Positions 29,634 through 37,685 of a DNA stretch of 64,000 nt are shown here, in pieces. The DNA is from an uncultured Clostridia bacterium (GTDB lineage Bacteria; Bacillota; Clostridia; Christensenellales; Borkfalkiaceae): the NCBI GenBank assembly GCA_945638575.1, contig CALZDP010000004.1, positions 8,485 through 72,484 of the forward strand, given 5' to 3'. How positions within the stretch are numbered: position 1 is the stretch's first letter; each line of letters opens with the position of its first letter. The translations under genes and the position numbers were made by a program. The notes below the pieces were generated by a model. It was not told the DNA's origin. It saw only the letters and a program-made list of their open reading frames with translations, and did not search any database.

Positions 29634-29735
29634 TCTACCCGTGGGGGAGTAGCAAGCGTATTTTTTGCGCAACAAGTCAACACACCGTCCATAAATGGTC
29701 TGGCTTGTTTTAATTTGCGAGACTCATGTATATCT
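29634..29735 (+). promoter_or_regulatory. yybP-ykoY (Mn2+) riboswitch aptamer
   Basis: Conserved GGGGAGUAGC (29643-29652), pairing AACAAG/CUUGUU, GUCAACACA, and UUUGCGAGAC (compare UUAGCAAGACC in the L. lactis element). It sits directly upstream of mntP, the canonical regulated gene. Confidence 0.8.
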
Positions 29736-29769
29736 ATTATGGCTATACACCCCTCGTTTACACTGCTTT

Positions 29770-29806
29770 TGCGTCGGATATAGCGATATATCCGACTTTT
29801 TGTTTA
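29770..29806 (+). terminator. Intrinsic terminator, the likely expression platform of the Mn2+ riboswitch
   Basis: GTCGGATATA-GCG-ATATATCCGAC followed by TTTTTGTTT, ending 3 nt before the mntP ATG. Confidence 0.75.
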
Positions 29807-29808
29807 TT

Positions 29809-30396
29809 ATGTGGACTTTTGATTTCTTTCTTAACGGCATTCTGCTCGGCGTCGGGCTTGCCATGGACGCATTTTGCGTTTCTTTGGCGAACGGTATGAA
29901 CGAACCTAAAATGCCATTTAAAAAAACTAACGCCATCGGCTTGACTTTTTCCGTTTTTCAAGGGATAATGCCCCTTTTAGGGTGGCTTCTTTGTCATACC
30001 GTTCTTACCTATTTTAAGGTTTTCGAACATTTTATTCCTTGGATAGCCATATCGCTTTTAGGGTATATCGGCGGAAAAATGCTTTACGAAGGCATTAAAA
30101 ATAAGGGCGAAGAAAAGCCGGCGACTACCTTTATCGCACTTTTACTGCAAGGAATAGCAACTTCTATCGACGCTTTGTCGGCAGGGCTTACCATAGCAAG
30201 TTACGATTTTTTGTTTGCGGCGGTAACTGCGATTTTGATTGCCTCTGTAACATATTTGATTTCGATTGTCGGTGTGTTTATAGGCAAAAAATTCGGTACG
30301 GCGATTTCCGGTAAAGCAACCGTTTTCGGCGGTATTATTTTAATCATTATCGGTATCGAAATTTTCATTAAGTGTATGATAAACCTATATAGTTAA
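29809..30396 (+). CDS. mntP: Manganese efflux pump MntP
   Basis: The ORF track starts at 29695, which is inside the riboswitch. The Met at 29809 (MWTFDFFLNGILLGVGLAMDAFCVSLANG...) gives a ~195-aa protein with the two MntP DAF/DAL repeats. No obvious SD precedes it. Confidence 0.8.
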   Translation: MWTFDFFLNGILLGVGLAMDAFCVSLANGMNEPKMPFKKTNAIGLTFSVFQGIMPLLGWLLCHTVLTYFKVFEHFIPWIAISLLGYIGGKMLYEGIKNKGEEKPATTFIALLLQGIATSIDALSAGLTIASYDFLFAAVTAILIASVTYLISIVGVFIGKKFGTAISGKATVFGGIILIIIGIEIFIKCMINLYS

Positions 30397-30663
30397 GAAT
30401 TAAGAATACCTATGGTTACTCAAGTTTGAGATAGCATATGGGCGCAGCCACTCTGTCAACTGCGTTGACATCTCCCCTTGCACAGTACCCCTCAGGTGCT
30501 TCGCACCAGCTCCCCTTAAAAGGGGCGCCATAAGTGAATAGTTCGGTGCTTGGTAGTATACTGTACAGGTTTGAGTGTGCGTCAGCATTTTATATAATTA
30601 CTCCAATACCACAATTCTTAATTCAAAATTCTTAATTCTTAATTAAAAGGGCACGAAGTGCCC
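30393..30663 (+). repeat. Structured AT-rich repeat element A, bounded by 15-bp inverted repeats TTAAGAATTAAGAAT
   Basis: Left arm 30393-30407 overlaps the mntP stop; right arm is 30628-30642. The interior has several perfect hairpins (GTCAAC-TGC-GTTGAC, GGTG-CTTCG-CACC, CCCCTT-AAA-AGGGG). Segment 30567-30642 is near-identical to the reverse complement of parts of 37504-37680. The element ends with hairpin GGGCAC-GAA-GTGCCC. Confidence 0.7.
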
Positions 30664-30664
30664 G

Positions 30665-30689
30665 TAAACAGGCTTATAGCCCCACTTTT
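30665..30689 (-). repeat. 24-nt motif copy, reverse orientation (TAAACAGGCTTATAGCCCCACTTTT), immediately after repeat element A
   Basis: Read directly. Confidence 0.85.
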
Positions 30690-36115: not shown

Positions 36116-36229
36116 TCTATAAAAACATGAAAATAATATATATTTGTATACGATTATCGGCTTTGTTTATCTGTGATACAGATGGCGTTACGCCTGTAAA
36201 ACGGGTTTATAAAAAAGCAGAATAAGTAC

Positions 36230-36271
36230 AAAAAACAGGCGTGTTTGAAATTCCAAACACGCCTGTTTTTT
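36230..36271. terminator. Bidirectional rho-independent terminator between convergent genes
   Basis: AAAAAACAGGCGTGTTTG-AAATTC-CAAACACGCCTGTTTTTT: a perfect 13-bp stem with A-run and T-run flanks. Confidence 0.9.
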
Positions 36272-36314
36272 ATATATTGTCGTAAATCGTTTTAAATATT
36301 GTTTTATTTTATTT

Positions 36315-37427: not shown

Positions 37428-37685
37428 AAATTACCTTGGTTTTTATAAGTTTGCCCATTAAGGTCGGCTTCGCCGACAGCGTCGGCAAAGCCGACAATTA
37501 AAAATTAAGAATTAAGAATTGCGGTATTGGAGTAATTATTGAAGTGCGATTACATCGCACGACCATTCCGCCCTGCGAACAAGTTCGCTTTCCTCCTTTG
37601 CTACATACGAAGGCTTTGTCCTTCAAATTAAGAATTACGGTCGGAAAATAATTATATAAAACGCCGAAGCAAACTCAAACTTAAA
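37428..37685 (-). repeat. Structured repeat element B, occupying the ntpB-ntpD intercistronic spacer
   Basis: Contains AATTAAGAATTAAGAATTGCGGTATTGGAGTAATTAT (37504-37539) and AATAATTATATAAAACGCCGAAGCAAACTCAAAC (37646-37680). Both match element A in inverted orientation. It also has twin hairpins GTCGGC-TTC-GCCGAC and GTCGGC-AAA-GCCGAC (37463-37495), plus GTGCGAT-TAC-ATCGCAC and GCGAAC-AA-GTTCGC. Confidence 0.7.

Follow-up and report, generated by a model that had tools for sequence, protein, structure and literature searches.

A gene-less, heptamer-armed insertion downstream of mntP in a Borkfalkiaceae genome, probably derived from a PF05635 cassette

The window analysed here is a 64,000-nucleotide stretch of one contig of an uncultured Clostridia bacterium from the Borkfalkiaceae. 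It contains a non-coding, hairpin-rich block of ~270 bases (30393–30663), situated after mntP and before a gene of the Na+/Ca2+ exchanger family. This block probably belongs, as a gene-less member, to a family of small heptamer-armed insertions and is an internally deleted non-autonomous derivative of a PF05635 cassette, since the same arms and the same junction bracket a PF05635 gene in the congener G017. On this reading, the 7-base word TTAAGAA/ATTCTTA, repeated in inverted arrays, would form the ends of the block; nested inside would be two genus-wide two-hairpin units together with a species-specific core of ~130 nt. The whole would have entered, after the split from the nearest sampled relatives, the space that separates the stop codon of mntP from a resident motif of ~24 nt, becoming fixed afterwards. 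New here are the multi-copy gene-less form, the five comparisons with module-less sites of relatives, the patchy species distribution and the nested hairpin repeats.

Organization of the element and its flanks

All features of the window copy are given on the plus strand. The upstream host gene mntP (29695–30396, taken from the ORF list; PF02659 is the Pfam label of the identical gene in public contigs) ends within the element, its stop codon TAA (30394–30396) lying inside the first TTAA of the left arm. This arm, TTAAGAATTAAGAAT (30393–30407), consists of two heptamer words, TTAAGAA-TTAAGAA-T. An earlier note on this DNA, made from the letters alone, had described perfect 15-bp inverted termini, and indeed positions 30628–30642 of the right arm are the exact complement of the left-arm 15-mer. 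When at most one mismatch is accepted, the window contains the 15-mer 4 times; shuffles lead one to expect 0.08 such matches. The arms close a perfect 15-bp stem, or one of ~19 bp with one mismatch.

The left arm is followed by a linker (30408–30439) with the small hairpin CTCAA-GT-TTGAG (30419–30430). Two-hairpin unit 1 (30440–30485), delimited from an alignment of 15 copies and from covariation, comprises the head GGGCGCAGCCACTCTG, the covarying hairpin GTCAAC-TGC-GTTGAC (30455–30469, hairpin 1) and then an orphan 5’ half of the second hairpin, ATCTCCCCTTGCACAG. Two-hairpin unit 2 (30486–30529) contains TACCCCTCAG, the hairpin GGTGC-TTC-GCACC (30495–30507) and the hairpin AGCTCCCCTT-AAAA-GGGGCGCC, so that the three hairpins named earlier are all present, the last of them as CCCCTT-AAAA-GGGG within 30508–30529. 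A 38-nt insert at unit 2 is an extra two-hairpin unit, of the genus-wide ‘D’ type, placed inside the second hairpin; it occurs only in the window copy and in the copies on contigs C46 and C21, which are the closest to the window copy (92% identical). Next comes the species-specific module B (30530–30569), where the conserved loop ATAGTTCGGTGC sits on a variable G/T-rich stem and is followed by GTAGTATACTGTACAGG. The nested core is surrounded by a direct repeat, AAGTTTGAG in the linker (30422–30430) and AGGTTTGAG on the right (30567–30575), and in other copies the core is likewise flanked by the word ATAAGnnnnGAG. The ‘partial duplicate’ reported at the left end represents one half of this direct repeat.

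The right part starts with a match to a sigma-70-like box, TTGAGT-16-TATAAT (30571–30598), directed toward the exchanger gene, and continues with the junction TACTCCAATACC-A-CAATTCTT and the right arm array AATTCTT AATTCAA AATTCTT AATTCTT AATT (together 30599–30644). The arms had been taken as the bounds of the block; they hold as its inverted ends, but the insertion extends further, to the terminal GC hairpin GGGCACGAAGTGCCC (GGGCAC-GAA-GTGCCC, 30649–30663), which is absent from the empty sites of relatives. This hairpin stands 3’ of the right arm in most copies and is terminator-like on the minus strand only. Outside the insertion lies the resident genus-wide motif of ~24 nt, GTAAACAGGCTTATAGCCCCACTTTT (30664–30689), which according to adjacency statistics is the preferred neighbourhood of right ends, and then the downstream host gene for a Na+/Ca2+ exchanger family protein (PF01699, 30729–31727).

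The second locus of the family in the window occupies 37463–37680 on the minus strand, within the ntpB-ntpD spacer. The recurrence of the right-hand module in inverted orientation, noticed before, was observed there at 37496–37680: the locus has two right-end modules (37626–37680 and 37496–37540, minus strand) with GC hairpins between and after them.

No ORF of the window copy is under selection. A 62-aa ORF on the minus strand was considered as a gene and rejected, since ~11 of the ~12 differences found when these three copies (window, C46, C21) are compared turned out non-synonymous, and its GGAG is badly spaced. The earlier dismissal of this ORF therefore stands on the substitution pattern, yet the frame is open in the two closest copies, C46 and C21.

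A mosaic repeat family in the genome

The source genome (1.67 Mb in 65 contigs, 41% GC, 97% complete) was searched with the block 30393–30663. The search for copies, proposed in the earlier note, yielded 81 BLAST matches, and the stepwise coverage of the query defined three modules. Module A is a two-hairpin unit composed of ACAACCCCTCTG, a variable hairpin and ACATCTCCCCTTGCACAGGGGCGAC. Module B has, family-wide, the conserved loop ATAGTTCGRTRC, a variable stem and then GTAGTATTCTGTATAAGTTTTG. Module C is TTTTATAtAATTACTCCnATACC-R-CAATTCTT followed by 2–5 heptamers and a GC hairpin. A covariance-model search of the source genome identified 16 strong and 3 weaker copies of the A+B core, and the right-end C modules number ~30. 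The core of ~130 nt is 75–95% conserved and carries the conserved loop ATAGTTCG on a variable stem.

The left arm is present in only ~7–8 of ~33 family members, most copies having the right arm only. The word ATTCTTA/TTAAGAA occurs 2–5 times per arm, and the arm length varies in whole heptamers. Every copy is intergenic, none is protein-coding, and the genes beside the copies share no common theme. Relative to the flanking genes, 6 cores are co-oriented, 7 are antisense and 6 are in other or unresolved arrangements; on account of this mixed orientation, a sense-strand 3’-UTR element and an obligate promoter were rejected as readings. Several copies are found at contig ends, hence the true copy number is probably higher. 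In a genome-wide count, 273 of the 908 intergenic regions share some repeat with another one.

Insertion sites in related genomes

Five orthologous sites were compared, and at all five the nearest congeners have short spacers lacking the repeat modules. In G021, whose MntP is 82% identical to that of the source genome, and in G010, the spacer between mntP and the exchanger gene is ~100 nt long, the gene order is unchanged and the element is absent. The ~24-nt motif is present at the matching position without the element in G021, G010 and G004, and in the first two genomes it is as far from the start codon as in the source genome. The locus of the source genome thus reads mntP-TTAA-[element]-hairpin-motif against TTAA-16 nt-motif in G021. 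In the V-ATPase operon, the ntpB-ntpD spacer measures 65–133 nt in five congeners and contains only the ~24-nt motif, while in the source genome 258 nt of repeat modules are found there and the motif is gone. The remaining loci, on contigs C21, C46 and C8, have repeat modules in the source genome and lack them in G021 and/or G020.

TTAA is seen at both edges of the element and once at the empty site of G021. Since TTAA is a part of the repeat word, a TTAA target duplication cannot be demonstrated, and insertion junctions other than that of mntP are too diverged to be read for a target-site duplication. No excision footprint or strain polymorphism was seen. Public contigs from at least 20 samples, encoding an identical MntP or exchanger protein, all stop inside the element, from both sides; since they end within it, the element is now fixed in the species. 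Judging by the aligned spacers, the insertion between the mntP stop codon and the resident motif most likely postdates the split from the nearest sampled relatives. Loss in the relatives is a less probable alternative, for which the distance to the nearest genome (only ~82–86% identical) leaves some room.

Species distribution

The arm and junction pattern (ACC-R-CAATTCTT; CCRYAATTCTTMATTCWW) was found in two of the 151 family genomes sampled, the source genome (18 exact matches) and G017 (43). It had no matches in 140 genomes of 22 other genera, and the reversed pattern used as a control had none among the 151 family genomes. BLAST adds arm matches in G009 and G002, whereas among the matches listed for G021, G022, G010 and G020, which are the nearest relatives, and for G015 and G004 only the ~24-nt motif part of the query is covered. 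The source species and G017 are not sister species, and an arm family common to them points to transfer or repeated loss as the origin of this patchy distribution.

The interior is distributed differently. A search of 60 relatives did not yield the full core, and an exact pattern for module B gave six matches, all by chance, in 185,579 species. Several congeners have the two-hairpin unit by itself, often with a T-run after it in the manner of a terminator. BLAST searches of plasmids and phages with the element found nothing, nor did a literature search for the arm sequence return anything relevant.

Relation to PF05635 cassettes

By profile search, PF05635 genes are present in 13 of the 23 genomes of the genus; the source genome has one, G017 four, G009 one and G021 none. 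One of the G017 genes, encoding a four-helix-bundle protein (C15:42267–42617, 92 bits), has arms identical to those of the window element, and it is the only gene found between such arms. The order of features there (C15:42140–42790) is the tuf terminator, (GAAGAAT)x3 AATGAAAAATGAAGAATGAAGAATGAAGAAT, a small hairpin with a promoter-like region, the gene, a hairpin and ACCACAATTCTTAATTCTTAATTCTTAATTC. Two-armed gene-less copies of the source genome (C8:35143–35307, C10:11504–11591, and those on C60, C13 and C56) are colinear with this cassette minus the gene, running from the left arm through the small hairpin and AAGGTnGTT...TATAATTnACTT to ACC-R-CAATTCTT.

The similarity to the cassette is BLAST-significant for the arms and the junction only. 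The TATAAT region of the window copy aligns with the promoter region of the cassette through colinear short matches that are not BLAST-significant, and therefore the idea that the conserved TATAAT of module C could be a relic of the cassette promoter stays a suggestion. Several other PF05635 loci of the genus have the gene beside arrays of a word of their own, for instance GTGATAT, GATTTCAT, GATTACATAC or ATATCGA. The sole PF05635 gene of the source genome (C1:2043–2393) is of this kind, being accompanied by ATTTCAT words and not by ATTCTTA, hence no cognate gene is at hand in this genome. Since G017 has at least 43 such arms, the position of a PF05635 gene between two of them may be due to chance. 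A G017-type cassette was also looked for downstream of tuf in the source genome and rejected: only the terminator is there, and the synteny beyond it differs.

The closest known systems are the intervening sequences of rRNA. In the Coxiella 23S rRNA, such a sequence has an ORF of the PF05635 family, enclosed by a 28-bp stem that includes tandem heptamers, and it is a substrate that RNase III cuts out (PMC4990558). Complementary tandem-heptamer ends likewise close the stem of the intervening sequences of Coxiella burnetii and Leptospira (PMC4990558), and inverted tandem-heptamer arrays closing a stem around an insert are what the window element has. The intervening sequences carry an S23p/PF05635 gene, and a gene of the same family stands between the identical arms in G017. 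The differences are that the window element lies between protein genes (mntP and the exchanger) instead of helix 9, 25 or 45 of 23S rRNA, that the window copy is gene-less and its family multi-copy (~30 per genome), and that its stem is of 15–19 bp only. Among the papers found in the literature search, the Coxiella paper alone (PMC4990558) connects heptamers with the PF05635 family. Taken together, the element resembles a MITE in behaviour, an rRNA intervening sequence in build and BIME/BOX elements in its modular hairpins.

Mobility genes and the resemblance to MITEs

MITEs such as Correia/NEMIS of Neisseria and RUP of pneumococcus are small, non-coding, multi-copy intergenic elements with inverted termini; promoter-like boxes and long RNA stems can be part of them, and relatives have empty sites. 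The element is like them in being small, multi-copy, non-coding and variably present between related genomes. In contrast to them, it has no cognate transposase that we could find, no demonstrable target duplication and no sequence similarity to either, its termini are tandem heptamers of variable length, and most of its copies are one-armed.

In the source genome, no Y1/RAYT (PF01797), TnpB (PF07282) or reverse transcriptase gene was found, and control genomes do match PF01797. No IS4/IS5 (PF01609) or IS630 (PF13358) gene was found in the source genome, G017, G009, G002 or G021. The rve profile, run on the same five genomes, gave nothing tied to the element: the one IS3-type gene of the source genome (C33:14999–16186) lies beside a tRNA gene, and its ends are unrelated to the element. 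On short contigs flanked by the repeat, the ORFs proved to be ordinary genes.

These data bear on the strongest alternative, by which the element would be a classical MITE, an internally deleted version of a DDE transposon with TTAAGAAT-array termini and a TTAA target, moved in trans by a transposase now lost or unassembled. We regard it as unlikely. It accounts well for the perfect 15-bp inverted termini with TTAA at both outer edges, for the many small ORF-less copies and for the sites of relatives without the element, and, with contigs interrupted at the repeat, the assembly could lack IS copies. Nevertheless, neither IS4/IS5 and IS630 genes in the five genomes searched nor a reverse transcriptase gene in the source genome were found, the single IS3-type gene is without such ends, most copies have the right arm only, and the arm length varies by whole heptamers, while TTAA belongs to the repeat word and no duplication is demonstrable. 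A MITE assignment lacks the two features that matter most, a cognate transposase, which the searches did not find, and a provable duplication. The proposal of the earlier note that the block could be a non-autonomous mobile element is hence borne out in substance by the many non-coding copies, the module-less orthologous sites and the patchy species distribution, but not in its textbook MITE form, as the left arm is absent in most copies and no transposase with these ends was found.

Folding and covariation of the interior

The region 30393–30663 folds better than shuffles with z = -4.1 on each strand. Hairpin 1 was collected from the source genome and congeners in 30 distinct sequences with 16 different 5-nt stems. 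Of the 150 outer pairs, 141 are Watson-Crick, whereas shuffling the partners gives 78 on average and 97 at most; there is a single G-T among the 150 pairs, and the loops are mostly of 3 nt. Palindromes that are maintained or created at the DNA level would account for such a pattern no less well than an RNA helix. RNAalifold supports hairpins 1 and 2 only. Two further helices, one closing the 5’ part and one of fixed register in module B, were rejected, being 61–68% paired, no better than the shuffle control. The closing helix TATGGGCGC/GGCGCCATA suggested earlier is not retained by most other copies. Module B has its better fold on the plus strand in all but one of 15 copies (14 of 15); its G/T richness alone would produce this bias. 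The Rfam search at E <= 1, covering the window region, 9 other copies of the source genome and 12 loci of relatives, gave only sub-threshold chance matches.

We find it quite unlikely that the interior is a functional structured RNA whose copies are retained for its own action, either as a small RNA encoded many times or as an element working in cis on an mRNA, the arms being incidental. Such an RNA would agree with the 75–95% conservation of the core and its conserved loop on a variable stem, with the covariation of hairpin 1, with the better plus-strand fold of module B and with the promoter-like box. However, it leaves unexplained why nothing appears in Rfam at E <= 1, why the core is limited to one species, why the orientation to genes is mixed (6, 7 and 6, as counted above), why hairpin 1 has 141 of 150 Watson-Crick pairs and one G-T only, and why the whole element folds equally well on either strand; the fixed-register helix of module B fails (61% paired, equal to controls), and its strand bias is attributable to G/T richness. 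The earlier suggestion of a structured ncRNA family is accordingly not upheld for an independent RNA gene, given no clean match to any known Rfam family, the mixed orientation and the nearly pure Watson-Crick pairing of hairpin 1, and of the covariation looked for, that of hairpin 1 was found and that of a fixed-register module B helix was not.

Heptamer arrays and palindromic mosaics elsewhere

Inverted tandem-heptamer arrays are scattered in many bacterial genomes. Explanations of them, where given at all, have been ad hoc, invoking regulator sites or quadruplexes; the cyanobacterial STRR are heptanucleotide arrays as well. In Geobacter metallireducens, sites with tandem heptanucleotide repeats are paired on opposite strands (PMC2700814), and GGGNATC heptanucleotide repeats are described in Xanthomonas and Nostoc (PMC4692102). 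Like the arrays of the element, the Geobacter, Xanthomonas/Nostoc and STRR arrays are intergenic tandem 7-nt words with few units per array, whereas the words differ. The Geobacter and Xanthomonas/Nostoc reports name no linked gene and no sites with versus without an array. In the element, the arrays border inserted DNA and are matched by the arms of a PF05635 cassette.

It is very unlikely that the heptamer arrays are DNA-binding sites of a regulator or nucleoid protein that spread by regulating neighbours. Tandem 7-bp words in paired inverted intergenic arrays would be expected of such sites, and the Geobacter case offers a precedent, itself a hypothesis only (PMC2700814); against this, the neighbour genes share no theme, the orthologous promoters of close relatives are without arrays, a 7-bp period keeps the sites off a single helix face, and the arrays come with unrelated hairpin cargo.

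BIMEs/REP and pneumococcal BOX elements are modular mosaics of short GC-rich palindromes in varied orders, with modules nesting in one another. The element is likewise a mosaic of nested GC-rich hairpin modules, but there is no RAYT gene, the modules and heptamer arms are unrelated in sequence, and the family is restricted to a few species of one genus. That it is a REP/BIME/REPIN-type element, moved by a RAYT (Y1) transposase whose substrates are hairpins in single-stranded DNA, is very unlikely indeed, for all its mosaic of perfect GC-rich palindromes with 3-nt loops and its modules nested within hairpins, given that PF01797 is absent from the 97% complete genome while control genomes match, and that there is no conserved GTAG-type head.

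Possible consequences of the insertion

In an RNA reading through from mntP, the arms of the proposed cassette derivative would close an A/U-rich stem of 15–19 bp, of the type cut by RNase III in rRNA intervening sequences. If it were cleaved there, the riboswitch-controlled message of mntP would be parted from that of the exchanger gene. RNase III is encoded in the source genome (C2:59120–59494) and may process the arms in this way; for this enzyme, an A/U stem of 15 bp is on the short side. The predicted TTGAGT-16-TATAAT box may fire toward the exchanger gene; promoter-like boxes in the region are no commoner than in shuffles, and the copies have no orientation preference.

We know of no function for the PF05635 protein of rRNA intervening sequences. 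A tentative generalization is that PF05635 cassettes are a class of mobile DNA spawning gene-less MITE-like offspring, the four-helix-bundle protein recognising its own heptamer word and so spreading the orphans. The ATTCTTA-armed elements of the source genome could then, with equal reserve, be such orphans of a cassette intact in a congener, spread within and between species. If true, this would explain the heptamer arrays of many bacterial phyla. The same arms with and without the gene, ~30 gene-less copies per genome and element-free sites in close relatives make a testable system for asking whether the cassettes move and whether the PF05635 protein reads its own repeat.

Two practical consequences concern genome data. 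The element accounts for the breaks that short-read assemblies of this species show where it lies. For annotation, it draws attention to stems and promoter-like boxes that have been inserted where relatives have adjoining genes, as between mntP and the exchanger gene or inside the V-ATPase operon.

Sequences adjoining the repeat copies

A genus-wide motif of about 24 nt, CGTTAACGGGCTTATAGGCGGACTTTT, adjoins right ends of the repeat family, that is, of the gene-less hairpin-rich insertions with heptamer arms (ATTCTTA/TTAAGAA). It is found at positions 30664–30689 of the window, at about 20 further sites in the window, and has 264 matches genome-wide. The motif lies 20–41 nt downstream, in a single orientation, of 9 out of 33 right ends, the expectation for random intergenic points being 0.85% (p about 7e-12). 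At one locus, on contig C21 of the same assembly, two direct copies of the motif flank the insert, and the congener genome G021 carries a single copy there. At the ntpB-ntpD site the motif is replaced. It may be a favoured target or a recombination anchor.

The species-specific core has a conserved 5’ flank, CCC(T)TTGAATAAGT, containing both TGA and TAA (own-genome copies, e.g. C46:6555–6580 and those on C19 and C51). The C46 copy provides the stop codon of the gene upstream of it from this flank, and the C-terminus encoded by that gene is unlike that of the G021 orthologue.

Hairpin repeats elsewhere in the genome and the genus

In the congener G017, loci L100, L103 and L104 contain extra species-specific repeat modules strung between heptamer arrays, examples being AACGCAACGCGTTTGAAACAACGTCTCGCC and GGATCCTGACGC...GCTCAGGATGAC. 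Every species of the genus seems to possess its own set of hairpin repeats.

The sole gene of the studied genome encoding a PF05635 four-helix-bundle protein (C1:2043–2393, outside the window) closely follows a tRNA cluster. Upstream of it, small hairpins are separated by the words ATTTCAT/ATGAAAT; gene-less arrays of hairpins with ATTTCAT are also present on contig C51, at about 500–620. Further PF05635 genes in the genus have long composite palindromes upstream (G017:C1:16430–17030, G017:C5:120250–120610, G017:C15:6570–6780 and, in a second congener, G009:C142:6080–6270), in which a gene-specific word of 7–10 nt (GATTTCAT, GTGATAT, GATTACATAC) alternates with small hairpins and flips its orientation at the midpoint.

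Additional observations

Also outside the window, in the region C33:10921–16456, a gene for an IS3-family transposase (396 aa, rve domain) is neighboured by a helicase-like gene of 1014 aa, another gene of 300 aa and, at the contig end, a tRNA gene; this region may be a small integrated island.

Upstream of mntP, window positions 29638–29789 match the yybP-ykoY manganese riboswitch weakly (22 bits vs the gathering score of 45) and are followed by a terminator-like hairpin (29773–29796); this is probably a diverged manganese riboswitch. A near-perfect intergenic hairpin of 69 nt occupies positions 36217–36285 on the minus strand. Its match to mir-3327, an animal microRNA family (35.6 bits vs the gathering score of 85), is a chance one to a long terminator-like stem.
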